IMG/VR virus record: IMGVR_UViG_2896054739_000007
Coordinates: 32,001-96,000 of that record
Source: a virus
Taxonomy: Duplodnaviria > Caudoviricetes
Strand: one strand, 5' to 3'
Length of the DNA stretch: 64,000 nucleotides
Under the pieces are notes generated by a model that saw only the letters and a list, made by a program, of their open reading frames with translations, did no database searches and was not told the origin of the DNA. The position numbers and the translations under genes were made by a program. Below, one piece after another: positions 1-56,475 of this stretch (positions are counted from its first letter, which is position 1; every line of letters starts with the position of its first letter).

Positions 1-361
1 ATTTGGTCATAACATAAACCATTTAGCATGAATGGAAGCCTTACCATATCATCATTAATGAAAAAATACTTTTTTATGTCTGTGTTCCGTGTTCTCAAAA
101 CATATTCACATACTACTTCATCCATATCCAATAATTCATCTTGTGAAATTGGATATTTTTCAATTAGTTTATTAAATTTTTTACCTGTTTCAATGTGATA
201 CTTATCTTCTTCTGATAATCTGTTATAATAATCAAGCTGTTTGTTCAAAACTTCAATTTCTTTACTTATACATTCTCCAAGTAATTTGAATAAATTTATA
301 TTTTTCACCTCACTTCAAACCTTGAAATCGTGCTTTCAATGCCTCTATAATTTATTGGCTT

Positions 362-1285
362 TTATGCGACTCCATAATCTTTTAATACGGGGGCTTCATT
401 CTTAATTTCATGTAATACAACCGTAATCATTCCATCCTCAATATGTACCTCATAACCATCATAAATATTGGTATCAATAAACAGATGAATATTTATATCA
501 TTTTCAAATCCCAAATCTGGCATTTCATATTTACCAATAACATTTAAGTAAGTCTGTTTTGTCCTGTTCACAAACTCGGTAGAATATGTAATCAAGTCCT
601 TTGGTATACCCCATGCCTCGTAAAGCATTACTTTATCACCATTTAATTCCTTCTCCACTACTGGTCTGTCATAATCGTTTTCATAAAACATACACTTATA
701 CTCCTTTTCAAAAATATTTTCATCATAATTGACACTTCTAATACTATAACCACAAGAAACTGCATCTAACATTTCTTTAAATTGTTTCATCGTCTTCCCA
801 CTTCCTCTTGCGGAAGTAACAAATAAAATTGGTCTATATTTTGCTGACTCAATCACATCATCTTTTGTAATATCACAAAAATACATTCTGTCTGTTGGAT
901 CGTCATTATTATCGTATCTATTTTCTACAAATAGAGATTTTAGACACGGAAGAATAACTGTATTTACAACTTCTTTGTTCACTATCGAATCAACAATCAT
1001 TCCATTAAATCTATTCCCTCTTGCTGTGCTACTTGCTCTAACAACTTTTATGAGATTACCATTAGGAAATCTTACACTAGATTCACATTGATTATTTCTT
1101 ATTTCTGTTTTCTTTTGATCCCAAATCAAATTTGAAATAACATTTATTACAATATCACTTTTAGCTTTTGATGTTACCCAAACTCCACACTTATAATTTT
1201 CATTTGTGTTACAAAATTCTATTTGCTTTTTTAGTGCTTCAATTAAGTTTATTTTTATCACTCCTCTTTTATTTATATTCTCCAT
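362..1285 (-). CDS. Hypothetical protein with degenerate terminase/helicase-like ATPase motifs
   Basis: ARGNRFNGMIVD and ARGSGKT motifs; SD GAGGAGTG suggests an ATA start near 1252. Confidence 0.4.
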   Translation of the reverse strand: MENINKRGVIKINLIEALKKQIEFCNTNENYKCGVWVTSKAKSDIVINVISNLIWDQKKTEIRNNQCESSVRFPNGNLIKVVRASSTARGNRFNGMIVDSIVNKEVVNTVILPCLKSLFVENRYDNNDDPTDRMYFCDITKDDVIESAKYRPILFVTSARGSGKTMKQFKEMLDAVSCGYSIRSVNYDENIFEKEYKCMFYENDYDRPVVEKELNGDKVMLYEAWGIPKDLITYSTEFVNRTKQTYLNVIGKYEMPDLGFENDINIHLFIDTNIYDGYEVHIEDGMITVVLHEIKNEAPVLKDYGVA

Positions 1286-1598
1286 TCATCCGCTGTTCTA
1301 ATATCTTTGCCTCTCTCCTTAATCCTCTATCAATTTTCAGCAAACTGTTAGTATATTTCACCCATTCTTCTGCTTCTATCTTTTGAATATGATCTGACAC
1401 TTCTCTATGTATCATATCTTGCATTTTTAAATAATCTTGTAGAGATTTAGGTATTCTAATATATTTACTGTAACTTCCAGATTCTAAGACTCGTTTTATA
1501 TCTTCTCCAATATTATGTTCGTGTCCATCAGTTTCAAATAATTCTTGAAGTTCTTTTTGCTTAAAATCTGTAAACGTTTTATCAATACATTTGCCCAT
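1269..1598 (-). CDS. Hypothetical protein (frame extends upstream towards SD GGAGGTG at about 1690)
   Basis: ORF track plus SD position. Confidence 0.6.
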   Translation of the reverse strand: MGKCIDKTFTDFKQKELQELFETDGHEHNIGEDIKRVLESGSYSKYIRIPKSLQDYLKMQDMIHREVSDHIQKIEAEEWVKYTNSLLKIDRGLRREAKILEQRMNGEYK

Positions 1599-1713
1599 TT
1601 CTTCAAGTAAAGAATCATGTATTTCTTTTTCATGTTCTTTGAAGAATTGAAAAAGTTCATATTTTTGTTTTGGAATTATTGATTATCACCTCCCACCAAA
1701 TGAAACCAAGATT

Positions 1714-2364
1714 TTATTGAACTAAAATACTATTCAATTTACTATCCGCTATATCAAAATACTCTTTGTCAATTTCATACCCCAGATATTTTCTATCTAA
1801 TTCTTTTGCAGCTACTAACGTAGAGCCTGTACCACAAAAAGGATCAAATACAATATCTCCTTCTCTACTCGAATTACTAATATAGAATTTCAATAGATCT
1901 ACAGGTTTTTCACATGGGTGAGTTTTGTTACCAATGATATTATCAAATTGATGAACTGTCTTACTTCCACCTATATCATTAATCCATTTTGCTTTTCCTT
2001 TTCTAAGAAATAATATATACTCACAATTCTTCATATAAAATTGTGAACACACACAATTATTCTTTTCCCAACATAAAAGATTATGTAATTTAAAACCTGC
2101 TTTCTGTGATTCATTCAACATTTCAGTCAAGTTTAGAACATTTGTAAATATATAAGCATGACTTCCATATTTCAAAATTCTATATACTTCTGGCATCCAA
2201 TCATATATATTTACATTTTGATGTGCGAATAATGTACCAGAATTTCTTTTTAATATACCTTTTGGACGCTTTGTGCGTTTTCCATCTTTACATCCACCAG
2301 AGATTGTCTTATAGGGAGGATCGGTAACTAACAAATCTATACATTCAGATTCCATATTTTTCAT
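1714..2364 (-). CDS. N4/N6 DNA methyltransferase (beta class)
   Basis: TDPPY, HPCEKP and DPFCGTGST motifs; frame open upstream to about 2406 (IEINKIFNIDSI). Confidence 0.92.
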   Translation of the reverse strand: MKNMESECIDLLVTDPPYKTISGGCKDGKRTKRPKGILKRNSGTLFAHQNVNIYDWMPEVYRILKYGSHAYIFTNVLNLTEMLNESQKAGFKLHNLLCWEKNNCVCSQFYMKNCEYILFLRKGKAKWINDIGGSKTVHQFDNIIGNKTHPCEKPVDLLKFYISNSSREGDIVFDPFCGTGSTLVAAKELDRKYLGYEIDKEYFDIADSKLNSILVQ

Positions 2365-5740: not shown

Positions 5741-5764
5741 TAACGTGCCAATGAAAGCAAAATT

Positions 5765-6160
5765 TCAACAAATCGTCCTTAAATAATTTTGATAATCTTC
5801 CTTTGTATATTCATATTTATTTGCTATGTTTACACATTTTTCTGTTTTCCAAGGTTCACATCCTTCATCTTCTAATGTAGAAAACCAATATCCAATTAAA
5901 TCTTTAATATCACTATACATCTCATTAATTCTATTCTTTATACTTTCTGCTTCATGAAAACTAAATTTTCTAACAGCAACTAATGAATTTAAATAATCCC
6001 ATGCTACTTGAAAATCATCCCTGCTTTCTTTATAAAAATAACACTCACCATACTTATCTGTAGCCGATTCTGCTGGAATATCAAAATTAGTATGATTATC
6101 ACTATCTATATGATGATGTCCACAATCGCCTGTATAATTTTTACATGTTTTACAATTCAT
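5765..6160 (-). CDS. Hypothetical Cys/His-rich protein
   Basis: SD GGAGG before MNCKTCK. Confidence 0.6.
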   Translation of the reverse strand: MNCKTCKNYTGDCGHHHIDSDNHTNFDIPAESATDKYGECYFYKESRDDFQVAWDYLNSLVAVRKFSFHEAESIKNRINEMYSDIKDLIGYWFSTLEDEGCEPWKTEKCVNIANKYEYTKEDYQNYLRTIC

Positions 6161-6433
6161 AAATCCTCCAATTTTCCCAATGAAAGAGTTGTTTTCTGGC
6201 ATCAATCTAACACTGGTTTACATGTATCTGACCATCTTTTATCTTTATGTTTTTCTATGAATTTTTCACACTCATCCCAATCTTTATGTAACGAAAAAAG
6301 TATTTTCCACAATATTTACATTTTAATTCTATTTCTAAAAAACGGATATCATTATCGTTATATCCGTGAGTCCAATGCCAGCAAACCACCTCACTATTTT
6401 TATGTCTGCAAAACAAATCCATAATCCTTTTAA

Positions 6434-6811: not shown

Positions 6812-7620
6812 TTACTATTCATTTCATCCCCCACATAATTTTTATCATGAACAATAGATACTTCATATTTCAACAGTGCTTGATACACTTCGTCTGGAAT
6901 AATCTCTTTGTACTCATTTGCAATATTTATAATATCTTTTTTCTTTTTACTGGCGTATACGGAATATGCTTCCTCAACAGAGTTATATACTCCTAATTCC
7001 ATTTGATTATACTTTGCCAAATATCCACAAGAATTTTTTCTAATTCCATTTGGAAGACCACGTTTATTTGGTTTATTTAAGAAAAGCATATTAATTCGTT
7101 GTGGAACTAATAAACATTTTTCTGGTGCATAAACAGTATTCCCAGGACATTTTATATCTTTGTCTAAGTGTAGTCTCCCATCACATTCATATTCTCTTTC
7201 CTTATACCAATCTGCAAATAGCTGATAATTTAACCATTCATTACATACAGTACATTTATCATAATATGAAGGATGAAGTTCCTGATTTTTGTCGTAGTAA
7301 CACCTTTCGATCATGTGCATCCAACATAAATAAACTCTTGAAAATTTACCATTATGTTTAACTTTCCACTTACCATCACCAATATAACCAATACCAAATA
7401 CAGATCTATCATATGGATTTTTAATAGTACCTTTTACAAAATTTGAATATGCACTATGCCTTTTCACATAATGAAAATCATCTAAAAATTCCACATCCAT
7501 GTCATTTCGTTTACGATAAGCGATAATTTTCATTTTTGTTCCCTGGTTATTGATTCTTATTTCTCCTAATCTATCCGTTTTATCACCTCTTTCTAAATGG
7601 CAAGGAAATGAAAAATTCAT
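6808..7620 (-). CDS. HNH-type homing endonuclease-like protein, paralog 2
   Basis: LHLDKDI, CLLVPQRINMLF, LPNG shared with paralogs. Confidence 0.75.
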   Translation of the reverse strand: MNFSFPCHLERGDKTDRLGEIRINNQGTKMKIIAYRKRNDMDVEFLDDFHYVKRHSAYSNFVKGTIKNPYDRSVFGIGYIGDGKWKVKHNGKFSRVYLCWMHMIERCYYDKNQELHPSYYDKCTVCNEWLNYQLFADWYKEREYECDGRLHLDKDIKCPGNTVYAPEKCLLVPQRINMLFLNKPNKRGLPNGIRKNSCGYLAKYNQMELGVYNSVEEAYSVYASKKKKDIINIANEYKEIIPDEVYQALLKYEVSIVHDKNYVGDEMNSK

Positions 7621-9869: not shown

Positions 9870-9915
9870 AAATCACACCTCCTACCATGAAACCGATGAT
9901 TTAAGTCTATATGTA

Positions 9916-10797: not shown

Positions 10798-10932
10798 TCT
10801 TATTTAGGAGTAAATCCGGATTTATTCTGCGCAGAAACCTCATTTCCTCCTAATCTTTTTCTTTATTTGCTTTGCATTTGCTTATTTGTTACTTCTACTT
10901 CTCAACTATCAATGAATCGAAATTTTTATTGC

Positions 10933-11145: not shown

Positions 11146-11196
11146 ACTCTTTCTCCTTTAATTAAATTTTTTGCTTTGAAATTGGCTTTTCAACTG

Positions 11197-12662: not shown

Positions 12663-12974
12663 CTTACGGTTGCAACACCTTTGTTCCTTTCTGTGTTATT
12701 TTTCTTAAACTTCCTTGATTTTATCTGCTAACAAATTTATTAATCTTGCACCATGCGGATATAACGCATTTTCCATTACTATGTAATCTAATTGCATCAT
12801 TCCTCTACCTTGATTTTCTTCAATAATATCTGCTAATATATTGAAAAAATCTGCTTGTTGCGCTGAATCCATATTCCAGAACTCTTCAGCTAATTCCTGT
12901 GGATTCATTTCTATATTAACCTCTCTTGTTACTATTTCTTTTCACCTCCTCTTGATGAAACAGATTTTTCATGG

Positions 12975-14895: not shown

Positions 14896-14958
14896 TATAC
14901 TAATTGTTGGTGGATTTTTTCCACCATTTTTCCAATAAAATCTCGAATTTATTGCTTA

Positions 14959-18243: not shown

Positions 18244-18711
18244 TAGTCACCATCCTGTTCCTGTGGTTCCAATCCCATTCTCATTCGCAAAACATCTTCC
18301 TCAATCTGATCTGTGTTGGTTTTGATTTCTCTGCCAAAAGCGTCTTTGATAATAATATTAACATCTTCCATATTCACTTACTCCTTAATCAAAATCGCCA
18401 TCCAGTATTCGCAATCGTATACATTTCCACCAACTTCTCCAGCATAACCACAATTGGTAGAAGAAATTTTATATCCTTGTAAAATTAGCCTATCTACTTT
18501 TTCTTTAAATACCTTATGGTCATTTTCACTAACAGTTTCTATCATGTATTTATCACCTCTCTCCATATGAATCGCAGATTTCAACAATTGTATTTTTGCA
18601 AACGTCATGATATAATTTTTATAAGTTGATAGATATGTATATCATTTGCTATTTATGACTTCGAACTTGATTAACTTAAGTTACCAAAATCTTTAGTCGG
18701 AGGTAGCTGAT

Positions 18712-24741: not shown

Positions 24742-24787
24742 CCTATCACCTCACACCACAAAATCAAATTTTCATTGACAAAACATA

Positions 24788-25042: not shown

Positions 25043-25086
25043 ATAATTCTCCAACCTTTCCACGAAATGAATTTTTCATCGCCTTA

Positions 25087-29400: not shown

Positions 29401-29440
29401 TTTAAATTTCCTCCTATTATTTTCAACAATATACTGTCTC

Positions 29441-30743: not shown

Positions 30744-30808
30744 CCTTTCTTATAAAATTCCCTAAAAATGGGTATAAAAAATACAGTGTACTTAAAACAC
30801 TGATTTAA

Positions 30809-36426: not shown

Positions 36427-36756
36427 TCTAACACCTATAAAAACAGCATTTTATTTCATCTTATAATCTTTATACCACATTTTATACAATTCCTTATCCG
36501 AATACTTTCTATTTCCATTATACTTAGACCACCCCTTCTTATAGGAGTTAAAGGAATTTAAAAATTTATAGTCACAAATATCATAAGAGCAAAATAATTT
36601 TTTATATGCCCTTCCAGACGGAATGTCCAAATAATTTCTACGCAAATGTCTATTTGCACGCTTTTTCATTCCACGGTTATAATCCTTGCAACATGGAATT
36701 TTCTTATAACTTCTACTCATAACATTTCCCTCTTAAAAGCAACAATTCATTGCAAA

Positions 36757-37859: not shown

Positions 37860-39181
37860 AATCTATATCCCTCTTCTCTTGTATATTCGATAAAAACCGG
37901 ATTTCAAGACTATCATTTACCAATTACAAACATCTCTATAAAGCAATCTATGAGAATTGCACATTTTTTCTTCGTTAAGAGAATCTAATTCCTTTTGACA
38001 ATCTTCATTCCAAGTTCCAGAAATTTTCTTATTAAGTAAAATTCTTAATTTGCTTTCGATTTCCAATTCAGTATCGTAATCTGTCTTATCATTATTTGGA
38101 AATTCCATATTAAACGCATATGTCATTTTAGAAACCAACACGCCCATGCATTCGGTACATAAATTTATTTTTAATGGATTCAAATTTCCTATAGTAATTG
38201 AATATATTTTTCTATATTCATCTTGCTTCTCGTTACAATTTAAACACGAAGTATATTTACCATTATCTAATCCAACATCAAGCATGATATCCTCCAATCT
38301 AAAAATTTACTGTTGCAAATTTATATCATAAATATTTTCCACAACATTTAGCAATGAGTATCCGTACCCACCAAGCAATCCTTCCCACTCACAATATTCA
38401 TTAAACACATCCTGTTTCGACATACTCATAATATCTCCATCTTGTGATGTATCACCAGGTTCTAATCCTCTACGCTGTCTAAGAGCCTCCATGACTTTCT
38501 TATTATATGTCTTCTGTGCTGGTTCCAACCAATTCACACTGACATGTTTCTGTTCCATTTCTCCATCTTCTGTTTCAAAATTCACATCACATTCTTCCTC
38601 GGATTCCCATGCATATCCAATAAAGAATCCATATTGCTTCAAATTTTTGTGATAAACTCTATCTCCATGTTTGAATTTCTTATCCATACTTACCTCCACT
38701 TTCATCCACACTTTATAACAATCTTATCAAATATTCTCTGCTCTAACTTATCAAAATCAACTGATAAAATTCCATCATTTATCATCTCATTTATTTCATC
38801 CAATCTTACAAATACTCCATTTGGATTAGTCACACTCATACAAAATTCGCTTGGATATAATTTATTCTCATTCCTGATTGTTTGCTACCATAGTTGGCTT
38901 CTAAATGGATTATTCATATAACTTCCTCCAAACGATTTTTCAAATCATTCTGAACCTGTCCAAGTGTCTCAATTCTTGATTCTATTTTTGCGTATTCAAT
39001 GCCGCACAAATAAACTTCTTTTGCTGCATCATTTTCTAACTCAACAAATTTATCTTCGATCAGCTTTACACATCTATCAATTTCTTCCTGAATCTCAGTT
39101 ATGTATTCTTTTACTTTTTCTCTCATATCTGGCATAATACTTCTCTCCTAATGAAAATCGAATTTCATTATCAATCATTCT

Positions 39182-39889: not shown

Positions 39890-39964
39890 ATTTATCTCCT
39901 CAGTTTGAATTCGTTCATTATAACAAATATTATCACCATACCCTTGAAATCAAATTTTCAATTA

Positions 39965-40657: not shown

Positions 40658-40862
40658 AATATTTTCATCTCTTTCTCCAATAAAATCAATCTTTCATTTT
40701 CTGATTTATTTATACACTAATATCTCTAATGCTTTCTCCAATTCTCATCTTCCCACTTTTATATTACTACTATCTGCTAACGCTTCACGCTTTAGCTTCT
40801 CTTAATTTATCATATGCCTCTTTACGAGTCATAATCTTCCTTCCATATTATACCATATATTA

Positions 40863-41858
40863 TTACTCAAGTGTTAATTTTTCTCTAATACCATATCCTC
40901 CATCTACATAAGTATTTACCGTAATATTAACATTTTTATGTCCTAATTGTTGCTGTGCAAAAGCTGCTCCATATTTTTCCGTTGTTACAGTTCCGTACCA
41001 ATGTCTAATCATATGCGGTGTAAGTTTTTTGCAACTATATACCTTAAATATTGCTCTCACATCGGACTCTTGCATTCTTTTCCCTGTCTTATTTAAAAAA
41101 ACTGCTTTATTGTCTACAATGTTTATTGTATTTCTGACTTCAAACCATTCCAAGAATGCGTTTTTTGTAGTATTATTAAGCAAAACATTTCTTCCTTTTT
41201 CAATGTGATACACCCCTTTCCCCATCACTCTGATATGTGGAGACTTTTCAATTTCACTTCCATCTAAAAATAAAGAAGAAAATTCCAATTCTACAAGTTC
41301 ACATTCTCTCAAACCTGTATTCATCAGAATTGTAAGAATAAGAAGATTCCTCTCCCTTACAAAACTATCATTCTTCTTTTTCTGAATAATATTTCTTCTC
41401 ATTTCATCCAAATCTTCTTTTGATGGCATTTTAACATAGCGATTATATCCAGAATCTAAACCTTCATATGCTACATCTTCAACAATATTACAATTTACTG
41501 GGACACTGGGAGAATTAACCATAGATCTCCAAAAACTTCTAAAGATATTCTTCCTTGTATTTAATGTGGTCGGTGATATACCTTCACTTTGTTTTTCTTC
41601 TAAATACATATTTATATAAGCCGATTCTATATATGTCATATCGGACTGCACAATCTCTGATATACTATTTTTCTGAATTATCCTTTTATCAATCAGCCAT
41701 TGTAATAAATTCTTAATTACAGAATAATAATTCAATGCACCTAATTTACTTTTCCTATTTAAAAGATAAAATTGTATAAACATTGGTATATTATCTTCAT
41801 TCATTTTTCTCTGTAACTTTTCTGAATTCTTCTTTTGAACTTCATCTTTATAACACAT
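40863..41858 (-). CDS. Tyrosine recombinase (XerC/D-like)
   Basis: TGLRECE, MGKG, PHMIRH, LGH, TY catalytic set. Confidence 0.92.
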   Translation of the reverse strand: MCYKDEVQKKNSEKLQRKMNEDNIPMFIQFYLLNRKSKLGALNYYSVIKNLLQWLIDKRIIQKNSISEIVQSDMTYIESAYINMYLEEKQSEGISPTTLNTRKNIFRSFWRSMVNSPSVPVNCNIVEDVAYEGLDSGYNRYVKMPSKEDLDEMRRNIIQKKKNDSFVRERNLLILTILMNTGLRECELVELEFSSLFLDGSEIEKSPHIRVMGKGVYHIEKGRNVLLNNTTKNAFLEWFEVRNTINIVDNKAVFLNKTGKRMQESDVRAIFKVYSCKKLTPHMIRHWYGTVTTEKYGAAFAQQQLGHKNVNITVNTYVDGGYGIREKLTLE

Positions 41859-42475: not shown

Positions 42476-43203
42476 ACAATCACTCTCCTTTGAATATAGT
42501 ATATGTCATATTCATAGTTTTGTCAATATTTTGTACAATATTCTGTGCAACTATGTATCACAAGTTGAAACGATGATTTCAAAGCTATATTACCAATACT
42601 TTGATGAATGAATACTTATTTTGTTCATATGTTTTGTGACTTCCATATACTCATCCATTCTTCCATATGTGACTTCATTCATAAAAGAATATAACCATCC
42701 GAATTTTGCAAGTGCAATTTCTGTATTGTGTTTTCTTTCTTCTCTGATCTTTTGTTGACGCTCTAATTCTGTTTTCTGTTCCACATCTGTAAGACTCTTG
42801 AACCATTCACTATATAAGTGCTTCCCATACCATTTATCCAATTTGTATATGGAATTTTCCTCCAAGGAATAAACCATTTATACAATGCATACCAAGCCAT
42901 AAATCAAGCACCTTCTTTCAATTTTTAATCATTTCAAAGTCATTTAACTATATTTAATTATCATTATATTCCAAACAAACATCCATAGATTTTTCTCCGT
43001 CTACACAACAAAAACAATGACTACAAGTTCCACCATTAATTTGACTTTCTTTACAAGTTCTACATTTACAATAAACATCATCATTAGCACAAAAAGCATC
43101 CATATTCATATTCTTCCTCCAATCATTTTATATAAACTACTTCTCTTTTTCGTGAAGAAGTATAAAGCACGATCCAACACATATACAGCGTGGAATATAC
43201 AAA

Positions 43204-44264: not shown

Positions 44265-45194
44265 TCATTTTGAGATTTTAACTTTCTTCCCATTCTCTAC
44301 ATATATCTTCTTCACTATTCCGAGTCCATCACACACTAAATCTTCCACATAAAGTACACATGATACTCTGTGGTCACGTTTCGGATACTTTGCTTTTGCT
44401 TCCGCACTGAATAACGCAGGGTCAATCTGCCTTAATTCCTTTGACAAATACCTATGTATTTCTTTCCTATCATTCGGATGGGCAATCCAAACCTCCCTTA
44501 ATGCCCTCATTACAAATGTTGCATATCCGTTTGTCTCTTTATTCCATCCAGCATTATCAATAATAGAAAAAATAAAGTCCAGGCACTTCTCACCATGAAC
44601 TTTTACGATTGAATATGTATCTGTATAACTTCCAAGAACCGATTCTTCTCTATTTCCTTTTGTAGACACAAACTTGATTCCATATTTGTTCAGAAGTTTA
44701 TCTAAGGAAACGGCAGCGTTGTCTCCAATGATTACCCTTGAAAGATGCTTTTCAAGTGGCTTCACATTTTCCACTTCTGAATCCTGTCCTATGAAGTATT
44801 CAGCTTCAAATTTTAATCGCTCATCTAAGTCTTCAGGAGCGTCCATAAGGATAATTGCATTGAGACGATCCATACCCTTCTCAGGAGCCACAAGACACCT
44901 CCCCTGACCATCTACAACCGCAAATCTGTATTCTTCTGGATGTGGTACTAAGATAATAGGTGTCAACTTTCGTTCATCCCATTTATTCTTTAACCGATTC
45001 AGATGCTTATGTGTTCTCATGCCCTGATACCTAACATCTACAAAACAACGAGATAAGGGAACCACGGCACTACCTGTAATCACTCTCTGATTCTTTCCCT
45101 TCCCAACAGTCATAAGCGGCTTAATATTTGCCACTATATCATTATACTGTTCCATTTTCCTTGTTTCCTCATTCATTGCCACTACTGCACTCAT
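44265..45194 (-). CDS. ParB-like (DUF6551-type) protein
   Basis: VDVRYQ, VVDGQGR. Confidence 0.65.
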   Translation of the reverse strand: MSAVVAMNEETRKMEQYNDIVANIKPLMTVGKGKNQRVITGSAVVPLSRCFVDVRYQGMRTHKHLNRLKNKWDERKLTPIILVPHPEEYRFAVVDGQGRCLVAPEKGMDRLNAIILMDAPEDLDERLKFEAEYFIGQDSEVENVKPLEKHLSRVIIGDNAAVSLDKLLNKYGIKFVSTKGNREESVLGSYTDTYSIVKVHGEKCLDFIFSIIDNAGWNKETNGYATFVMRALREVWIAHPNDRKEIHRYLSKELRQIDPALFSAEAKAKYPKRDHRVSCVLYVEDLVCDGLGIVKKIYVENGKKVKISK

Positions 45195-45307: not shown

Positions 45308-47961
45308 TTATACAACTAATGCCAATGATTTTTGCAAATTCCTTATTTCTTTTTGAAGTCCTTCAGCAATACATTTTTTTATTTCTCCCAAATAATCATC
45401 TATGTTCTGTTCATTAGTCAAGAAGATAAAATATTCATATGAATTTGAACTCCAATGTTGCATTTTCCATTTTTCAAAGCAATCAAATGGGATATGATAT
45501 CCAAAGCCGAACGTTTTAAACCCGTCTTCATAAACTGCGTCTACTTCACATTCGCTTTTTCTTAAATCTTCTTTTCCTGCTTCGACCTCATATACATATT
45601 TATAAATTTTCCCACCATTTTCTCTCCATTTGATAAATTGTTCTTTATCCATTTATCCTCATCCCTTCCTTAAATATCTAATTTCATTGCCTATTTAATA
45701 TAACTCATCAAGTTTTAACATTGTATATGTAAAACTAAACTCATCAGCCTTGAAAGAATCTTTCTTCCTTATGGCTAAATATTTCTTCTTTCCCTCTTCC
45801 ATCTTTGTCTTTGATGAAAAGATGCCACACTCTTCAAATTCTTCGTCATATATGTGTTTTACTTTCAATAAATACAAATCCATACCAAACCCTCCAATCT
45901 ATACATTACAAGGTAAATAATGCCCTTCTATATGATATTCTCCATCTTCCAAAACCAATGAAGTATTTTTCTTTACCCATTCTACTAATTCCTCTGGACT
46001 CAGAAAATACTTTGCTACCGTAAAATCATTACACACCGGAATACCATCGCCAGCAACTTCTTTTCCCTCAACAATATCTTCATTATCATTATTTAGAATA
46101 ATAAAAAATCTCCATTCGCATTTCATGCAATCACCTCACACCACATCCAGCAGCATACTTCAAAATATCATCATTTGTTGGATATGTATCTTCCCATCCC
46201 AAAACAGTATAACTTTCACCGTTCTTAATGTCATTTATAATTCCTAACAATTCTTCTTTATCCAACTTATATAAACATTTCCATGTAATCATATTATATC
46301 TGCCTCCACTTGAAACTTAGATTTTATCCACTATCTCTTTTACTTTGCTTTTTCAAACAAACACATTATTTTTGATTCAAGTTCTATGCCGTCTGGAGCA
46401 TAGGAAGGTTTTTCATATAGTTTATGGATAAAACCTCTTTTCTGAAATTCCATCATAACTTTTACAGAACTTGTACTTGTTGTGTCTGTAAACAATACAT
46501 TCATATTATGTTTAATTGCATATTCTAAACATCCTTCTACATTAAAAATTGTATCTAAAATTAATAGCTCTTGATCATCCTTATCAAATTTAGGTATATA
46601 TTTTCCCATATTATTATCCACACCCTTCCCATAAATCTATTATTTCATTCCCATATTTCTGTGTTATCTGTTAAGTTGGCTTCCCAATTCCAACTATGAC
46701 CAGTTTTTTGCTTTACAGTATTAATAGCTTCATTTTCTGTTTCTGCTTTTACAACATAACAATAACTTGAACAATCCTCTTGATATTTCGGTATATCTTT
46801 AACTACATATAATCTTTTCATTTTAATCACTCTCCATGTTAAATGGCATATACAAATCAGCAATCTTTTCTTTGACATGCTGATAATCGTCTTCTGCCAA
46901 TACATCAACCATTCCATTTATTCTTTTTATGTCTAAATTATTCATATGTTCTGCAATTATAGTACCTTTTCTTCCATTTTTCGTGTTTGCTTGAATATGA
47001 AAACGATTTTTATCATCATCATTTTTTCCAAACATAATTGGAGCACAAAAAATTGCGTTGTTTACAACTCCATTCCCTAAAATAATTACATACGTTCCTG
47101 TTTCTAATCCATACGGTAACTTTGCCGCATATATTTCAAATCTCTTCATATAACTTCCCTCCATTAAACAATCCTTTCAAGACTTAAATCTCTTTGACAC
47201 TAACAATTTTAGAATTCTTCATGCAACGTGTTCCATCTCCAATATTCATCAAATAATACTCTTCATCTTCATTAAACATTTTAATAGCTCCGCTATCTCT
47301 GTTTTCACTATCTGAAATTTTTAGTCCTTTAACAAATTCTTCTGTTGTAATATGCTTCCCATCTGCAGTCTCTACATTTACAACTTCTTTTTCGTCAACT
47401 TCTACCTCAAGCACAATTTGTAATTTCTTCATCTAATTTTCCTCCATTCTTTCCATCAAATAATCCTTTTAAGATACTTTTGTTTTGTAACCGCCTTCTG
47501 GTGTAAAACTATTCCAATCAACTTTAGTTGCCCATTTATCTTGATGATTGCTGCCGTAAATTTTATGCCATTCCTCTAAACTCATTACATGAGCGTTATT
47601 CTCGATCCTAACAGCCACCATCTGTTCTCCATGACATTCAAACTCTTTTATCACTTCATATTTGTCATTCATACTTATGTCCTCCATATTATATCATTTA
47701 TCCACTATAAAAGCCACCAGATTTTATTTTCCAGTGGCTTTCTATTCGCTTCCATATTCACTTTTTAACATCGTAACCGCCACGATTAGCTTTACTCATC
47801 ACTTCATTCTTAGATTTTCCCATTGCTAAATCATGGCTCATTGCACCGTAATCTGTTTTATATCCTTCTGGTGGCATCCGATTGTCAAATTTAACATTCG
47901 TAATGATTCCAGGTAAAAAGCATACACAAAAGATAACAGCCAATCCAATTAAAGTTTCCAT
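45308..47961 (-). other. Run of small hypothetical genes, including a degenerate PemK-like ORF (46823-47149)
   Basis: ORF track, SD sites, boundary palindromes between most genes. Confidence 0.55.
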
Positions 47962-48072
47962 ATATTTTCCTTTCTGCCTACTATGTAGGACTTTGATCTA
48001 TTTGTTTATATTTTCATTATACTATTCTATGTGTCCAATTAAAAGAACTTTTCATCAAAGGAAAGGTACATT

Positions 48073-48804
48073 TTAAGACCAATTTATCAAAGCATCATAT
48101 ACTTTTTGAGGTATAATTTCTTTGTACTCTTCCGCAACTTGTTTTATAGCTTCCAATTTGGCTTTATAATGTGCCGTTTCAGCATCTTTTATAGAATCAA
48201 ACTTACCAAGATTTTTTCCATTATAGACTGCCGAAAATGTTCCTTTACTTTCTTTCCTAACACCATTAGGTAATCCACTTTTATTAGGTCTTGTCATGAA
48301 TAACATATTTATTCTCTGTGGAACCAGCAAACACGTTTGCGGAGAATATATTTTGTTTTCTGGATATAATATATCCTTATCCAAATGCAGTCTTCCATCT
48401 ACTTCATATTTATTGTTGTTATACCATTCTGCAAATTTCTGAAAACACTTCCATTCATCGCATACTGTAGCAATGCCATAGTAGGATTTATTATCTTCTT
48501 TATATTTTTCAGAATAGCAGCGTTCCAACATACCTCTCCATACTCTATGCTCTTGTGTTCTTTTCTTTGAAGTACCTGTACTATGGTTGCCTTCTCCTAA
48601 ATATCCTACTCCAAATACTGATCTGTCATACGGATTTAATGCTTGGTGGCGTTTGAAATTGGTATATGTTGTATGCAATCTATAATGATGCTCATCTTGA
48701 AATTCAACAGTTACATCATTATAACCATCATACTTAACAATTTTCATTTCAGTTCCAAAACGATTATTTTCAATTTCTCCCACTCTTGAATTTATATTGT
48801 TCAA
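48073..48804 (-). CDS. HNH-type homing endonuclease-like protein, paralog 3
   Basis: WRGMLERCY, LHLDKDI, CLLVPQRINMLF. Confidence 0.75.
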   Translation of the reverse strand: MNNINSRVGEIENNRFGTEMKIVKYDGYNDVTVEFQDEHHYRLHTTYTNFKRHQALNPYDRSVFGVGYLGEGNHSTGTSKKRTQEHRVWRGMLERCYSEKYKEDNKSYYGIATVCDEWKCFQKFAEWYNNNKYEVDGRLHLDKDILYPENKIYSPQTCLLVPQRINMLFMTRPNKSGLPNGVRKESKGTFSAVYNGKNLGKFDSIKDAETAHYKAKLEAIKQVAEEYKEIIPQKVYDALINWS

Positions 48805-48821: not shown

Positions 48822-51800
48822 CTAACCATAAACTTTTTCTTCAAAAATCTTATTATGATGTTCTAACACCTCTTGTATCTCATAAATTTTGCCAAGTATC
48901 TTATCATATTCTGCACTCAGTAAATCAGCAGCTTGCTTTTTAACTGCTTCTTGATAATTTCTCTGTAAATTTTCAATGAATCTTTCTACATTTATCTCTT
49001 GATCATTGAACAGAATTTTCACATCATATAATCCATTTTCATCTGCTTGGATATCTATTACATCCCTATCTTGTCCTATTGCTTCACACACCATAAACAT
49101 TGCCATTTTATTATTGATAACATCTATTTTTGCCATATCTTCACCTCATTTCTTCCTTGAAATGCGAATTTTAAGAGAATATAAATTTTTCCAACATATT
49201 CTCCATTTCTTCTTCCAATTCATCATCTATACTACAATTATGATCACATTCTGGATTGCAACATACACATCTAATTTCTGGATCATGTACACATTGTCCC
49301 GTAGTATTGATATTTTTCCTATAACTTTTTCCATTCTTTTCTATAATTTTAAATGCCACACTACACCTCCAAATCTCCATCCAAATACAATCTTTCCATT
49401 TCCATATATTCTTCATGTGCTGCTTCTATTGTTTCCTTCTCTATAATATCTAAGATTCTTTCATCATCTATTTTATTCAATTTTTTATTTCCTCCAATCA
49501 CTCATTTTCTTCTTTAATTTTCGACACAAACAATTCTCTGTCATACCTATAATCTTCTCCATCATAAGGAAGATTATAAACTACATATATGATAACAATC
49601 ACAAGCTAAACAATTCCTGTCTTCATGCTTACAAAAATCATGTATATTATCAAAAGCATCTGTTCTACTTGCTGTTATATATGTTCCCTTTAAGTTATAT
49701 ACAACAACTCCCAGCTCCTTTATATCCAAGATATATTTTTGACCTTCCACCAAGCCAAAATAAGCTGCTCCTTTATAGTTTGCCGTTCCAATTTTCTTTT
49801 CCATATTTTCCTCCAATATACCAAGTTGAAATACGAGTTTCATTACCTTTATTTATTCTTATCTTTCTTCTTTGAAATACAACTTTTGCATCTAACAGTG
49901 GGCACTGTAAGTCCATTACCTTTAAAAAATGGTATCTCATAACAATCAAGTACAAAATTCTTTCCACAATCTTTACATTTGCAAAAATACGTTTCATCTC
50001 TACAAGGTATAAGATATGTGTACAAAAGACATTTTGAAGAAGAATAAACCCCCATTATTTCATACGGAATTTTTCCTTTATATAAATAGTGAGGGGTTGA
50101 GAAACTTCTTCCTCTGTAAGTATGATTTGCAAAATATTCAAAATCTTCCACCGCATATTTATCAGGTGAATCAAGACAACCTCCATACTCTAAGCTACTA
50201 CCATTATGCCCTAATACTAAAATACCATTTTCCACATAAGCAGGTATTTCATGATAAAACTCACCAACTGAACCTATATATTTACCAATTGCTATAATCA
50301 TTCTTTTATTCCTCTCTTTCCTTTATTTTTCGATGAAATTCCGACTTCATTGCCTATTATTCTTCGACAACACCAGTATCAATAATTTCTTTTACAATGT
50401 GTTCATATGTGAAATGATACGCTTCGCCTCTTTTAATTCTGATTTTCCTTCCATTTTTCATTTCAATAATAGTTTTTTCCTTTTTGCAATGACCGGCACA
50501 AATTTCAAATTCACCCTCATATCCATATGAATTGATTTCCTGAATATCATCACTTCCACTTGATACGGTGTTCAATCGCCTATATATCCTCTTAAAGTAA
50601 ATCGGACAGCATAAAATATTCCCTGTAAATCCTCCCCAATCCGCATCATTAGACCACTCTTTGATATTTTTAACAATATTCCCATTGCCGATCAGGATTT
50701 CAAAAACCCTTCTAAAAGGATTATTAATATCATGCAAATATTTCCATGCTGACATTTTAGGTTCGTTATAGTAAGCATCAAAACTAACTTCCTGTAAAGG
50801 GCTCCTGAAAAATAGTCCTTTTTCTGTCCCCTCCTCTGTACTGATAACATATCCTTTATAATTCACAACTCTGTTTTCCATAGTTTTTCTCCTTCCTAAC
50901 TTCTTGAAATCCTGATTTTCAGTCTTTAATCAACTAACTCAAAACCAAAATGACAAAATCCAGTTCTATCTGATAAATAATCAGATACCTCTTCTTCATC
51001 TGTCATATCCCCTGGAATTTCCATTTCTGTCGGTAACTGCTTTAACAATTCCATATGCCCATCTGTGTCCCACTTAATATTTATTGCTTTCATTAAATTT
51101 CCTCCGTTTCTAACTTGAATTTGTGTTTTCATTGCACTATTTCTTTACAATGTTCCAAAAGACCTTCAATAGTTCCTCCATATTCACTATTTAACCTATT
51201 TTCAAAAAATATGTAGCTAATAATCTCATAATCTAACATAGGAATATCAATATTATCGGATTCCATTTCATCAATAAAATCCATTATAGTATCATATTCC
51301 CTATTAATTATTTTTCCATTTTCATTCTTGTATTTAATCCATAAATCCTTCATATATAAAACCTCCACTTCTCCACTTAAAATCATTATTTCCTTGCCAT
51401 TTGTTACTTAAAATTGAGGAATATCTTTTTCATCTTCTCTCCATCCTATCGGCGTAAATTCCAATGCAGTTAAAAAGGCTTGATATACAGTGTTTAACCA
51501 TTCAATCCTTGTATTATCATTACCCTTTATCTTGTCAAACACACCCATATCAATAAATCGCTGCCGTTCTTCATTAGTCAACTTTTCCCACGTCCATGAT
51601 TTTTTAATAACATTTTGGAAGTAATTTTCTACCACATTTGATTTTTTCATAATCACACCTCCATATACTTTTCCGCAAAATAAATATCATTTGCAATAGC
51701 AACTGTCTGTCTTGATTTAAGTTTCCGAAAATACTCTGTCTTTCCATCTGCCACAACAACATCGTTTCCACATATTTTAATATCTACATTCGGATTTTTA

Positions 51801-52108
51801 ATACCTCTCATAACTTCTCCTTCCATGAATCCATTGTTCTATTGATATTCTGTTTTCCATTCAAGCCGATTTTTTCCCTCAATCCAATCTCTTATATATT
51901 CAAGTGGCATTTTTTCAATTCTCTTGATAAAATCCGCTGCTTTTATCATCAAATACCCTGACATTTCATTCCATTTGATAGCATCATCTGCATATTTCCT
52001 TAACCATGACGAATACGCTTTATGCTCTTTGAAACTGTCAATTTTTTCATTAAACAATTTGTATCTTTGTTTTGCCCATTCGTTTCTAGCCTGTACTTTT
52101 ACTTTCAT
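48822..52108 (-). other. Run of small hypothetical genes
   Basis: ORF track, SD sites, boundary palindromes. Confidence 0.55.
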
Positions 52109-53442: not shown

Positions 53443-53797
53443 TAGTGTTTCCTCCTTATATATGGATTATACACACTTTATACGTATATGTCAACAATAA
53501 TTTATACTTATTTCATGCGCATAAAACGATTCTTTCATTGCTTTACATATTCTCAACAAAATTTTCGATTTCTTCCAACGAAAATATGTAATCTGTTATT
53601 GGTTTTCTATCAAATTGATCCATTGGGAAAATAGCGTATTTACTTCCATCAAACTTAAATATCAACCCTTTATACGCTAATTTCTCTTGTAATCGCCTCA
53701 AACGTTCAATCACATCATTCTCGCAATACATATGGAATGTGTTAAAATAGTTGCCTACTGCTTTTCTTTCTTCCTTTGTCATGTATATATTTCCTCC

Positions 53798-54028: not shown

Positions 54029-54040
54029 GCTCTGCCCTCC

Positions 54041-54685
54041 CTACGCTGCATAAAATGTTCCATCTTCTAAAAATTCCCATCCATTAGCTTCACAAGTTTC
54101 TGTTACTTCTTCTTCATCCGCTTCATAAAAATATTTATAGCCGTATTCTTCATATTGTTTAGAAAGCATTACAAACATATCAGCAACTAATTTTTCCATT
54201 TTTCGGATTGTGTCAACCTGAATATTTTTATACTGCTGATATTCAAGATCATATATCCAACCTTCAGCAAAATCCGTCTTATCAGATACGCAATAATTAT
54301 AATGTCCGTCATTATAAGGCAATGTAACAGTTCTTCCACAAACTTCCATATATGCCTCTATGGTCTTCTGCTCATGTTCCGTCATATAATCCCAAAAATC
54401 CTTGAATGTTTCACCACAATATAACTTGTTCCGGATTACCTTGAATACGTCCATCAAATCAAGTTTTCCGTATATATTTAAGCCGTCCCCCTGACAATAG
54501 CCTAAAGAATATTGCATCTTTAAGTTACTGTTAGAAAAAATATTGTGTAAATCTTCTGTGTAAATTTTCGAAAATTCGTCATTTCTGCATGGATCATCAA
54601 GATACCACTGATTTACTTTCTCTTTTGCTTCCTCCGATAATTCAGGATAAGTATATACATTATAAGTTTCTGTTACTGTACGCAT
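54041..54685 (-). CDS. Acidic phage protein, possible anti-restriction factor
   Basis: YTYPELSEEAKE, QGDG, CEANGWEFLEDG. Confidence 0.45.
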   Translation of the reverse strand: MRTVTETYNVYTYPELSEEAKEKVNQWYLDDPCRNDEFSKIYTEDLHNIFSNSNLKMQYSLGYCQGDGLNIYGKLDLMDVFKVIRNKLYCGETFKDFWDYMTEHEQKTIEAYMEVCGRTVTLPYNDGHYNYCVSDKTDFAEGWIYDLEYQQYKNIQVDTIRKMEKLVADMFVMLSKQYEEYGYKYFYEADEEEVTETCEANGWEFLEDGTFYAA

Positions 54686-56250
54686 AAAAATTTTCTCCAT
54701 TCTATTTAATTTTCCAATAATAAAAGCAAGCAACATTTCCACTTGTCACTTGCTCTATACTTCCCTTTCTATGATGCTTATTTGTCTTATTTAAGGACTT
54801 AATGCAACGCACATACATATTTGCATATGCGCTGATTTAAGGCTTTAAATGGGCTTGTATACGGTTTAAACACCAATGATTTTTTGATTAAATCCAAAAA
54901 GATTTATAAGAAAATCCGTATTGAAATTCAGTAAAAGACGGAAGCCACATTTATTAAAATATCTAAGTGTAATTCCAAACGCTTCCCAAGAAGTCCCTCC
55001 AATTTTAAAACGCCATCCATTATCAAACTTTCTAAATCCATGCTTTTTCATGCTCATTCCTCCATTGTTGAAGCAGTAGTTTCATTGATGTGTCAAATTC
55101 CATTTAAGACACCATGCCTTATATTCTTCATCTGTAATTATTCCATTTTGATAATCATGCTTTATCTCTATTGCATCTAAACACTCTTGAGATAATGTAT
55201 AACTTTTTACTCTTCCTGCAATTTTCCTATTCGCTGCCAAATAACATTGCATGGATAATTCTGCTATAATTTTATCTATTGCATTTACATTCTTTTTCAT
55301 TTTTACGATCTCCATATTTATATTTTATCACTTTCCGATAACCAATGAAATACACGATTTATTCTTTCCAAAATTTCATAATCGTTTCATTATCTTCTAA
55401 TACTAAACCGCACTTATAGCCGTGTCTATCTGCAATCTCAATCAATTCTCTGTTTGTCTTGCTATTTTCATATGGAATCATATAGAAAGAATTTGCTGTT
55501 ACTTTATGTAGTTCCACGCAATTTAACGGATAACATTCCGTTTGCCTAGTTTCGTCATTATAGCAACAGGCGCAATTATTAATCACCATGCAAATATCAA
55601 AAATAATGTCCTTGTGTGCCTTTTTACGTTTCTGTTCTGCATATGCTTTAAAATCCATGTTATCCCCCCAGTTTTTAAAATGTCATAACTTTTTCTTGTG
55701 TCATCATCAAAAATATTCCAAGTGGCAACGCAACAAGTGAAAATGTTGCATCTCCATCCAGCACAAACGGCGTTACAATTCCAATAGTTGCCATTATTGC
55801 ACCTGATAACTGTTGTTTCATATAATAAAAGCGTTCTGTCCTCTGTTTGATTCTCCACTTTTCTTCCCGGCGGTTATATTCTTTGAGCCATTCTTCATAT
55901 GTGTAAACTGTTTCTATTGCTTCAGATCCGATATTGTATATTATCATTATTCTTTTTCCTCTTTGTTTGCTGCCTACTTTGTTTTATATTTTCATTACTT
56001 TAATTACATACTATTCATTAATATTAAAGTAATCATCTATCAAATATTGAAGTTTGTCACATGTATTTAAAATTTCTCTTGTTTGATCGTTTTCAAAAAC
56101 TTCTTCTGAAGCTTTATTACATAAATCTGAAATCTGTTTTAATATATTTTTCATTGTTTCAGTCATTGTCTTTCCCCCTAATCTAAATTTTCTAATAGTT
56201 CCATTGCTATTTTAATTTCCATTTTAGTTATCTCCTTTCAAATTACAATT

Positions 56251-56475
56251 TTATTGTGCCGTTCTTTTATTCCACATTTCAATTACTGTATGTTTGTTTT
56301 GTGCATATCCAGGATCAATCATTGCCATACATCCAGTACAAAAAATTCTAAATCTTTCACCTGCTCTATGTTCGTATTTATCAATAACAATCTCTTTACT
56401 TCCACAAAATGGGCAAGGTTTAGTTTTTTCAGGATTACATTTTTCAATATCTCCACATGTAAAATCATTTTTCAT
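56251..56475 (-). CDS. Lar-family restriction alleviation protein
   Basis: KPCPFCG...C..C...WNKR. Confidence 0.8.
   Translation of the reverse strand: MKNDFTCGDIEKCNPEKTKPCPFCGSKEIVIDKYEHRAGERFRIFCTGCMAMIDPGYAQNKHTVIEMWNKRTAQ

Follow-up and report, generated by a model that had tools for sequence, protein, structure and literature searches.

The 64-kb window analyzed here lies in a prophage of about 160 kb from the mouse gut; the first ~27 kb of its contig have a host-like GC content and an integrase lies at the boundary, indicating a prophage. Gene orientation is minus strand throughout, and the gene interval runs in what look like long operons. A short palindrome, TGAAA-N6-TTTCA, is borne by about 50 gene junctions, 48 of these junction sites lying between window positions 323 and 56253. 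The sites (given without strand) and the candidate partner genes are as follows.

323..338, junction palindrome, perfect; same slot and centre in G006 and G008, flanks unrelated
1701..1716, junction palindrome, at most 2 mismatches; left arm forms stop codon
3234..3249, junction palindrome, at most 2 mismatches; left arm forms stop codon
4062..4077, junction palindrome, at most 2 mismatches
5752..5767, junction palindrome, perfect; left flank as in G008, right arm and right flank differ
6181..6196, junction palindrome, at most 2 mismatches
7604..7619, junction palindrome, weak arms; centre conserved
9888..9903, junction palindrome, at most 2 mismatches
10913..10928, junction palindrome, at most 2 mismatches
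11177..11192, junction palindrome, perfect; compared with G008
12956..12971, junction palindrome, perfect
14936..14951, junction palindrome, 3 mismatches; identical centre in G006 and L002
17565..17580, junction palindrome, at most 2 mismatches
18568..18583, junction palindrome, at most 2 mismatches
20578..20593, junction palindrome, at most 2 mismatches
21320..21335, junction palindrome, at most 2 mismatches
24759..24774, junction palindrome; sole duplicated centre of the genome, second copy at 39945
25063..25078, junction palindrome, at most 2 mismatches
25903..25918, junction palindrome; exact end of blastn block with L085
27621..27636, junction palindrome, at most 2 mismatches
28030..29998, minus strand, DUF262-type protein of 456 aa (28030-29400) and sigma-like factor (29441-29998)
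30793..30808, weak site adjoining tRNA genes; centre kept in relatives
34175..34190, junction palindrome; adjoins stop codon, promoter-like sequence downstream
34424..34439, junction palindrome, perfect
34683..34698, junction palindrome; end of blastn block with L082
35466..35481, junction palindrome; compared with G008 and G010
35761..35776, junction palindrome, absent from the earlier list
36438..36453, junction palindrome; island, cassettes on either side unrelated
36734..36749, junction palindrome; island amid unrelated cassettes, next interval 280 nt versus 2741 nt in G006
37891..37906, junction palindrome, at most 2 mismatches
39152..39167, junction palindrome, perfect; three unrelated left flanks across three phages
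39945..39960, junction palindrome, perfect; centre as at 24759
40681..40696, junction palindrome, at most 2 mismatches
40863..41858, minus strand, Xer-like tyrosine recombinase, 331 aa (PF00589, 2.9e-17), candidate enzyme; itself an array cassette
42566..42581, junction palindrome, perfect; metagenome contigs are joined at 42554 and 42579
44739..44754, perfect intragenic copy in gene 44265-45257; kept along with the gene in G006
45671..45686, junction palindrome; forms a 21-nt island in contigs from co-resident relatives
46311..46326, junction palindrome; contig joint at 46309
46632..46647, junction palindrome; island, neighbouring cassettes unrelated
47164..47179, junction palindrome, at most 2 mismatches
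47456..47471, junction palindrome, at most 2 mismatches
48039..48054, second site, 21 nt from 48060, absent from the earlier list
48060..48075, junction palindrome; left arm forms stop codon
49158..49173, junction palindrome; island, neighbouring cassettes unrelated
49827..49842, junction palindrome, perfect; island, neighbouring cassettes unrelated
50334..50349, junction palindrome, at most 2 mismatches
50905..50920, junction palindrome, at most 2 mismatches
51116..51131, junction palindrome, at most 2 mismatches
51378..51393, weak junction site
51826..51841, weak junction site, 3 mismatches
53522..53537, junction palindrome; a 12/12 sigma70-like promoter follows
55069..55084, junction palindrome, at most 2 mismatches
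55346..55361, junction palindrome; contig joint at 55342
56238..56253, junction palindrome, the last of the array

The palindrome had been described in a first-pass annotation, and we confirmed that observation against a shuffled background: the window holds 11 perfect copies, compared with 0.57 ± 0.71 in dinucleotide shuffles, and 35 copies with at most one mismatch (12.0 ± 3.4 expected). None of the other 5-mer palindromes with spacings of 2 to 10, scanned across the window, stands out. The nine perfect copies previously listed are all present, but two more exist, at 44739 (intragenic) and 59219; likewise, all 39 listed variants are in place, 37 of them with at most two mismatches, whereas those at 14936 and 51826 have three. 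Two zones described as motif-free, 27.9 to 33.5 kb and beyond 57 kb, are indeed sparse, but two weak, conserved sites (30793 and 31568) occur in the former and the perfect copy at 59219 in the latter. Strong conservation is limited to five arm positions; a weak extension, CAA 5' and TTG 3' of the motif, brings the arms to 8 bp, and the site is a simple dyad of 16 to 22 bp.

The motif lies between genes, as had been claimed: copies with at most one mismatch reach a density of 0.5 and 1.3 per kb in intergenic DNA versus 0.06 per kb in coding DNA, an 8- to 20-fold enrichment. It sits 3' of stop codons at a distance of 0 to 14 nt. The minus-strand gene block of the contig comprises 163 minus-strand ORFs, of which 47 have a motif positioned between -3 and +20 nt relative to the stop codon, compared with 1 of 84 spurious antisense ORFs taken as a control. 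In 18 of these 47 cases, the first three bases of the motif (left arm) are the stop codon, in agreement with the earlier remark that an arm often supplies it. The median spacing between sites is 828 bp, which supports the claim that they delimit cassettes of 1 to 3 genes. Compared with a sigma70 promoter and a terminator, the motif proved to be neither.

The most informative feature of the array, missed by the first-pass annotation, is the slot-specific conserved centre. The spacer, called variable there, does differ among the sites of one genome, but it is specific to its slot and the same between phages. Within the genome, 59 of 60 centres are unique, one centre being present twice (24759 and 39945) without evident deletion, and none of the 60 is palindromic. 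Besides, the GC content of the centres is 44%, versus 32% in intergenic DNA, and 32% of them contain CG, versus 8% of intergenic 6-mers. An identical centre was found in at least one of four relatives for 43 of the 48 listed sites (about 6.5 expected by chance), and collinear chains with G006 and G008 confirmed the same slot for 37 of those 43. Arm positions 2, 5, and 15 differ in 28 to 43% of orthologous pairs, and the A at position 2 mostly stands opposite C at position 15, with no compensatory change. In related phages the centres follow one another in an unchanged order but enclose different genes, and the sites therefore resemble crossover points that have been numbered.

When this phage is aligned with its relatives, as the earlier annotation had suggested, the breakpoints of gain, loss, and replacement fall on the sites. 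In the collinear chains of same-centre sites formed with G006 and G008, about half of the intervals show no protein similarity and differ in length. Islands of 16 to 33 nt of identity stand between unrelated flanks, perfect identity covering only 12 to 16 nt at many of them, and all 12 isolated exact matches of at least 18 nt outside alignable regions coincide with motif sites. Across 53 loci of a sister clade, a single centre joins 15 left with 9 right flank types in 23 combinations, and the left-right flank association across the site is near zero. Among same-centre pairs, 449 have ungapped homology of at most 3 nt on both sides, and in 145 it exceeds 150 nt on one side but does not exceed 3 nt on the other. 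The arms segregate with their own flanks: identity at right-arm position 15 is 0.68 where only the left flank is shared and 0.94 where both are. Breakpoints are located inside the 16 bp or at their margins, not anywhere in the gaps of 30 to 100 nt, and exchange points can be mapped only to the central ~9 nt. In mouse-gut metagenomes, contigs of co-resident relatives also join or break at motif sites.

One mosaic breakpoint is intragenic. A guanylate kinase gene (PF00625, 1.5e-20), intact in G006, is truncated after 31 codons in both this phage and G008, the cut coinciding exactly with a motif copy inside the gene, and the right arm and right flank of the truncated gene differ between the two. 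This implies that the motif itself, and not only selection for intact genes, places the breakpoint. The sites are not the sole breakpoints, since mosaicism occurs inside cassettes as well; 73 of 110 motif-less junctions are also breakpoints. The association of motif with breakpoint is further confounded by region, because the conserved core blocks lack the motif.

We tentatively favour the reading, at somewhat short of even confidence, that the palindromes are crossover sites cutting the accessory arm of this temperate phage of ~160 kb into about 60 cassettes of 1 to 3 genes each; the interpretation offered by the first-pass annotation is partly supported. The arms TGAAA and TTTCA, common to all sites, would be read by a dimeric protein, and the nonpalindromic 6-bp centre, near-unique per junction and matched at the equivalent junction of relatives, would serve as an address. 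When collinear relatives meet, by co-infection or by infection of a lysogen, exchange at matching centres would yield an in-register hybrid with its left portion from one genome and its right portion from the other, and repeated events would replace single cassettes. Such a matching requirement would stop sites of the same genome from recombining. The chemistry is most likely that of Xer-, Cre-, or FLP-type tyrosine recombinases, given the inverted arms, the asymmetric 6-bp centre, the arms travelling with their flanks, and the Xer-like recombinases encoded. Counting against the proposal, arms of five strong positions are short relative to the 11- to 13-bp arms of known simple sites.

The candidate enzyme encoded at 40863-41858 has XerH and XerA, whose sites have 6-bp centres, as its best solved relatives. 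Its alignment with XerH keeps the conserved R, K, HxxR, H, and C-terminal Y, which we read as the probable catalytic residues. This protein suits the site geometry and may serve the sites, as had been suggested, but its clade occurs in 5 of 7 motif-bearing genomes and is missing in G003 and G013, the former with 26 perfect motif copies. No recombinase clade is common to the seven motif-bearing genomes compared, and tyrosine recombinases also occur in genomes without the GAAA-type motif. Only the genes for the sigma-like factor and the DUF262 protein occur in each of the five GAAA-type motif-bearing distant relatives and in none of four others, a candidate link that suggests a partner with a regulatory or nuclease function and not a recombinase.

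Because two motif-bearing genomes lack the Xer-like recombinase, recombination by short homology at a regulatory site is a serious rival, albeit one that we consider less likely. The palindrome would then primarily be an operator at which a dimeric prophage repressor acts at many junctions, as at stoperators, or a signal for the phage sigma-like factor, exchange being a by-product of general or phage-encoded homologous recombination over the 16- to 22-bp linker, as at the promoter-early stem-loop (PeSL) cassettes of T4-type phages, whose junction elements can drive modular shuffling in this way (PMC2839356, PMC4122927). For a prophage such as this one, repressor sites at numerous junctions are plausible; according to the abstracts, some 30 intergenic stoperators serve one repressor in cluster A mycobacteriophages (PMC9283540, PMC6550527). 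The sigma-like/DUF262 co-occurrence and the lack of a universal recombinase fit this rival, as do the exchange-point data, of which short-homology recombination would yield the same picture. However, a regulator reading the arms alone explains neither the GC and CG enrichment of the centres nor their better conservation than arm positions 2, 5, and 15. The repressor or nucleoid-protein array considered in the first-pass annotation is possible for the arms but, on its own, leaves the conserved centres unexplained. Besides, efficient RecA-type exchange needs roughly 23 to 27 bp, and the 12 to 16 nt of island identity fall below this. The guanylate kinase break, at a chance copy inside the gene, needs a partner site, and one with an unrelated centre would share only 5 + 5 bp. 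The dissimilarity to both sigma70 promoter and terminator also speaks against a regulatory site.

That the site is only regulatory or structural and plays no part in recombination, breakpoints coinciding with it because it sits at every gene boundary and selection favours recombinants with intact genes, appears very improbable. The frequent breakpoints at motif-less junctions and the motif-free core blocks favour it, but identical same-slot centres persisting amid unrelated flanks, a gene interrupted, in two phages, precisely at a copy within it, and breakpoints confined to the 16 bp or its edges argue strongly against it. We give still less credence to an RNA-level element, i.e., a post-cistron hairpin acting as a terminator, 3' stabilizer, or processing site. 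Its location just 3' of stop codons within apparent long operons would suit this role, but predicted stems (-2.4 to -6.1 kcal/mol) are not better than shuffles, a U tract, compensatory change, and an Rfam match are absent, and a conserved stem with a variable loop is the reverse of most protein-bound RNA hairpins. The integron analogy of the first-pass annotation (single-strand-folded attC-type sites, an IntI-type integrase, excised circles, and attI insertion) is the least credible reading, despite co-oriented cassettes with 3'-end, sometimes stop-overlapping sites and reports of integron-like elements in phages (PMC9892861), and was refuted: the Xer-like recombinase scores 15.7 bits against the integron-integrase model (cut-off, 265), the sites are simple dyads with weak hairpins, lacking the R''/L''/L'/R' layout and GTTRRRY core, rather than attC folds of 57 to 141 bp, and cassettes hold their slot and flanking addresses with no single insertion point (about 30 flank comparisons, four relatives).

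Among known systems, PeSLs likewise are short conserved elements between small accessory genes of hyperplastic regions, at which indels and replacements between relatives start or stop, and are proposed drivers of modular shuffling. They differ in comprising a sigma70 promoter and a terminator hairpin, whereas the dyad here has neither a promoter nor a stable hairpin, and in being near-identical copies within a genome that recombine mutually into mini-circles, whereas each copy here has its own slot-conserved centre. A variable centre specific to each slot, or a connection with mosaic joints, is not known for stoperators and is not described in the abstracts. As far as these abstracts describe them, stoperators too are dozens of short protein-binding motifs in short intergenic gaps near stop or start codons of temperate phages but are asymmetric, monomer-bound 13-mers that depend on orientation (PMC9283540, PMC6550527). 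The sites dif/XerCD, difH/XerH, loxP/Cre, and FRT/FLP share inverted arms flanking a 6- to 8-bp asymmetric centre; in simple tyrosine-recombinase sites, as in heterospecific lox/FRT pairs engineered for cassette exchange, recombination is expected only where centres match. Further likenesses are the Xer-like recombinase encoded in the array and the arms travelling with flanks. Natural simple-site systems, in contrast, have one or a few sites per replicon rather than ~60 different centres, whereas the arms here are shorter (five strong and three weak positions) and the recombinase is a candidate only, none being universal. Integron attC/IntI systems likewise have co-oriented arrays in which every promoterless cassette carries a site at its 3' end but differ in integrase family, in site length and fold, and in a single insertion point. 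Finally, in the modular theory of Susskind and Botstein and in lambdoid boundary sequences, short conserved sequences between modules are likewise proposed to act as crossover points. To our knowledge, evidence for such linkers is sparse and includes neither dyad arms nor addresses, whereas the present pattern is systematic over ~60 junctions and hundreds of metagenomic relatives.

The palindrome TGAAA-N6-TTTCA is enriched in the window, where the first-pass annotation had noticed it. We counted 11 perfect copies against 0.57 expected and 35 copies with at most one mismatch against 12 expected, and no other 5-mer palindrome stood out in the window at any spacing. The variants listed in that annotation with one or two mismatches were all present, although two of them carry three. 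The intergenic density of copies with no or one mismatch was 8 to 20 times that inside genes. In coding-strand orientation, the motif is tied to the stop codon of the gene upstream, with offsets between -3 and +14 nt, and its first three bases are themselves the stop codon in 18 cases, in line with the earlier remark that an arm often supplies the stop. A motif lies at the stop codon of 47 of the 163 open reading frames (ORFs) in the minus-strand block of the contig, compared with 1 of 84 spurious antisense ORFs, and it remains beside the stop codon even in long gaps with promoter-like sequence (34175, 39945, and 53522). Extension of the arms to 8 bp is weak and symmetrical. Each site thus described comprises two inverted arms and a 6-bp centre, none of 60 centres being palindromic, which is the simple geometry of a tyrosine recombinase core site (Xer/Cre/FLP).

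We searched for related phages with the RNA ligase and the sigma-like protein and fetched ten complete records. In a sister clade (53 loci), many phages share the GAAA-N6-TTTC core with an identical series of centres. No centre is repeated within a genome, yet each joins unrelated left and right flanks in many combinations. For a single centre, we distinguished 15 types of left flank and 9 of right flank, which combined in 23 ways with a cross-site association near zero. Among pairs of distinct contexts with a common centre, 449 had no ungapped homology longer than 3 nt on either side, and another 145 had more than 150 nt of homology on one side and at most 3 nt on the other.

Two relatives, G006 (129 kb) and G008, are collinear with the window phage through chains of same-centre sites, and roughly half of the intervals from one site to the next contain genes without detectable protein similarity and of unequal lengths (e.g., 280 versus 2741 nt). 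For 43 of the 48 sites of the first-pass annotation, an identical centre was found in at least one of four relatives, compared with approximately 6.5 expected, and 37 sites were confirmed at the same slot (the equivalent junction) in G006 or G008. In contrast to the centres, orthologous pairs disagree at arm positions 2, 5, and 15 in 28 to 43% of cases. The centres also differ in composition from intergenic DNA (GC, 44% versus 32%; CG, 32% versus 8%), and only one duplicate was found among 60 within the genome. This repeated centre is at 24759 and 39945, 15 kb apart, which makes the pair a natural case in which to look for deletions or circles formed within one genome. As a control, we collected isolated exact matches near the collinear diagonal but outside alignable regions: all 12 matches of at least 18 nt were motif sites, as were 29 of the 74 matches of at least 13 nt, despite the motif sites covering 3% of those bases.

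Recombination at the motif had been suggested from the window alone, and the relatives' breakpoints do fall on it, since blastn blocks shared with the window start or end at 25903, 27640, 34682, 39947, and 40699. Among junctions with a homologue for one or both neighbouring genes, synteny breaks at 56 of 59 motif junctions and at 73 of 110 motif-less junctions, in a pooled count that is partly confounded by region. The motif sites are the end points of insertions, deletions, and replacements between relatives, as are elements of the PeSL (promoter-early stem-loop) type in T4-type phages. In the same mouse gut samples, contigs of co-resident relatives at higher depth either align just over short islands at motif sites or are joined there (39169, 42579, 45669-45689, 46309, and 55342). 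In the few comparable cases, genes shared with relatives retain their flanking centres, 27 flanks being the same and 5 being off by one centre base only. Some composite cassettes have joints formed away from motif sites too, and a linkage test of within-cassette versus cross-site association did not discriminate because the whole region is mosaic.

Pairs sharing only the left flank have a conserved left arm, and position 15 in the right arm is identical in a fraction of 0.68 of them versus 0.94 of pairs with both flanks in common; the mirror image is seen where just the right flank is common. Judging from these alignments, the arms tend to move together with their own flanks, which places the exchange in the central 9 nt or so. 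That partners sharing a centre keep their arms with their flanks fits exchange within the centre, and it is also expected if short-homology recombination acts at a site whose role is primarily regulatory, a serious rival that we regard as somewhat less likely.

A copy of the motif inside a guanylate kinase gene provides a natural experiment on where the crossover falls. The relevant features are as follows.

Contig C112 (the 190-kb contig containing the window), 35127-35142 (window position -24518): motif copy inside the guanylate kinase gene, upstream of the window
Locus L195, 1628-1643: the motif copy inside the gene
Locus L150 (G006), 12822-13388: the guanylate kinase gene

The enzyme is intact in G006 (188 aa; PF00625 at 1.5e-20), and in the window phage and G008 it ends after 31 codons, exactly at the internal motif copy. 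The right arm and right flank are different in each of the three phages, and a different gene follows in each. Because the break destroys the gene, selection for intact boundaries cannot explain this breakpoint. The aligned loci indicate that the position of the crossover here is set by the motif itself.

Taken together, the comparative pattern of dyad junction sites, slot-specific conserved centres, and cassettes exchanged among collinear relatives is strong, and it is likely that recombination is directed by the sites. To our knowledge, such dyad sites with slot-specific conserved centres have not been described before, and our literature searches found no prior description. A Xer-like, site-specific mechanism with a check of the centre has, in our judgement, close to an even chance of being the one at work. 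A fuller scheme, natural addressed site-specific recombination with one recombinase, common dyad arms, some 60 heterospecific 6-bp centres, and in-register reassortment of cassettes, is put forward tentatively. According to this scheme, a phage-encoded or host recombinase would read the arms shared by all sites, and the approximately 60 different centres would serve as heterospecific addresses. Divergent collinear phages could then swap cassettes in register with no need for homology, and intragenomic deletion would be avoided. If true, this would be a natural counterpart of engineered recombinase-mediated cassette exchange and would amount to viral sex within a large gut phage family.

We further considered which protein might act on the sites, and two loci are of interest.

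40863-41858, minus strand: Xer-like tyrosine recombinase
28030-30743, minus strand: three-gene block encoding a 206-aa protein, a sigma-like factor (185 aa), and a DUF262-type protein (456 aa)

The recombinase, which the first-pass annotation had named as the possible agent, has a PF00589 domain, and XerH and XerA are closest to it among solved structures. By our reading, its alignment retains the R-K-H-R-H-Y catalytic set, and it is apparently an intact Xer-like enzyme. Its best models are XerC, XerS, and XerA, each scoring far under its own cutoff. The relatives examined have one to five tyrosine recombinases each; the clade of the window recombinase is present in five of seven motif-bearing genomes and missing from G003, the genome with the most copies. 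Besides, we observed that in co-resident relatives two small genes upstream of the recombinase (41860-42556) are replaced by 11 to 12 bases with a ribosome-binding site, so that the recombinase gene directly follows the 42566 site in those relatives.

A phylogenetic profile seeking the binding protein returned the sigma-like factor and the adjacent DUF262-type protein as the sole genes that all five distant GAAA-type genomes have and four others lack, a comparison of few lineages in which one genome scored as negative (G011) bears a TAAAA-type variant and another (G005) an unrelated constant-centre palindrome. The sigma-like factor matches the sigma70-ECF superfamily model below its cutoff. 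Models of the 206-aa and 456-aa proteins had a mean pLDDT of 63 and 68, with no Foldseek match at an E value of ≤0.001, and searches of Pfam, NCBIfam, and PDB sequences with both were empty or weak. As a marker, the 456-aa protein has more than 2,500 homologues encoded in public contigs.

Several other functions of the motif were considered and rejected. An RNA hairpin or terminator is disfavoured, since the stems of ten sites (-2.4 to -6.1 kcal/mol) are no better than shuffles, with nonsignificant z-scores. A structured RNA finds no compensatory change, A at position 2 being mostly opposite C at position 15, and an Rfam search returned nothing at motif sites. An apparent covariation of outer base pairs in the sister clade vanished in a comparison of orthologous sites, since the bases at these outer positions are free to vary. 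The motif shows no association with sigma70 promoters; 20 kb of the gene strand have four strong sigma70-like promoters and three terminator-like sites, none of them in a motif, and most sites are therefore inside operons.

The window corresponds to bases 59646 to 123645 of the contig, which has a GC content of 33%, compared with 42.6% in the remaining assembly; all genes of the window are on the minus strand. The first 27 kb or so of the contig (1-27000; GC, 0.39 to 0.45) and the last 5 kb are host-like, whereas GC is 0.28 to 0.34 beyond approximately 27 kb. Together with the recombinase at the left boundary listed below, this indicates that the element is an integrated prophage of about 160 kb, and one relative is classified as a provirus by IMG/VR. 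The DNA was found in public runs of 12 studies, the majority labelled mouse gut metagenomes, and a Lachnospiraceae metagenome-assembled genome has one annotated homologue of a marker protein. Contigs from RNA runs cover the region as well and are no sign that it is transcribed. A search of phage records found no close relative among deposited phages. Gene content includes two tRNAs, the sigma-like factor, the Xer-like recombinase, a TnpB-like protein, an RNA ligase, and a kinase/HD protein, and other features are as follows.

Contig C112, 27646-29004: tyrosine recombinase (452 aa), at the left GC boundary
Contig C112, 143853-144806: third tyrosine recombinase of the phage, besides this one and that of the window
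13424-14731 and 14959-17194, minus strand: TnpB/Cas12f-like protein (435 aa), neighbouring a kinase/HD protein and the RNA ligase
31568-31583 and 31727-31742: two 16-mers resembling the motif, each nearly the exact reverse complement of the other (15/16), approximately 145 nt apart
57798-57876, minus strand: strong match to the skipping-rope RNA family (79.6 bits; gathering score, 36.7), just past the end of the array

Two phage contigs that are dissimilar elsewhere match just the RNA ligase gene, with 90% DNA identity, and this gene thus resembles a single-gene transfer. The pair of 16-mers lies in a long noncoding gap upstream of the tRNA genes and is kept in G006 within a block of 94.5% identity; the region could be a regulatory region or an origin. 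Inside the gene at 44265-45257, a segment of 809 bp (44332-45142) is replaced by 37 other bases in higher-depth relatives from two metagenomes, implying that the segment is an optional insertion within this gene.

Why the mosaicism of tailed phages coincides so exactly with gene boundaries has long been debated, with conserved linkers directing exchange on one side and random illegitimate recombination followed by selection on the other. This phage family is an unusually clean case for directed exchange because a defined dyad of 16 to 22 bp with a slot-specific centre recurs at some 60 junctions whose order is conserved and whose intervening genes are unrelated. Directed exchange is directly testable here, since the phage is common in laboratory mouse guts and several relatives co-occur per sample. 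Should a recombinase recognise the arms and verify the centre, this would be a new use of site-specific recombination and would provide genome engineering with dozens of orthogonal sites ready for use. Furthermore, the sites supply a practical rule for delimiting the accessory cassettes of large gut phages.

Other palindromic elements occur in relatives that lack the GAAA-type core. In G005 (L137-L144), a relative from which the motif is absent, another palindrome, TTGTT-3 bases-AACAA, occurs 63 times, packed into 17 kb (87-104 kb); 57 copies are outside ORFs and 47 have the same 3-base centre, and it is a junction element without addresses. G011 (L164-L171) has an A/T arm variant with a centre of 6 bases in 19 copies, of which 13 are outside ORFs, and the motif family may therefore extend beyond the GAAA form; no collinear chain of sites was found between G011 and G004.

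Among known systems, the integron, to which the first-pass annotation had likened the array, does not fit. The window recombinase scores 15.7 bits against a cutoff of 265 on the IntI model TIGR02249. An attC site is an imperfect palindrome of 57 to 141 bp with R''/L''/L'/R' boxes, a GTTRRRY core, and a single-strand fold, whereas the motif is a simple dyad of 16 to 22 bp that folds weakly. Integron cassettes enter at one attI beside the integrase and may take any array position, whereas shared genes here keep their flanking centres in the few comparable cases. Stoperators are asymmetric, bound by the immunity repressor, and set in one orientation relative to transcription, unlike the dyad-symmetric motif. 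Each PeSL element combines a strong sigma70-like promoter with a terminator stem-loop, whereas the motif has neither and its hairpins are weak. The closest known counterparts are PeSL elements for role and heterospecific lox or FRT sites for logic.
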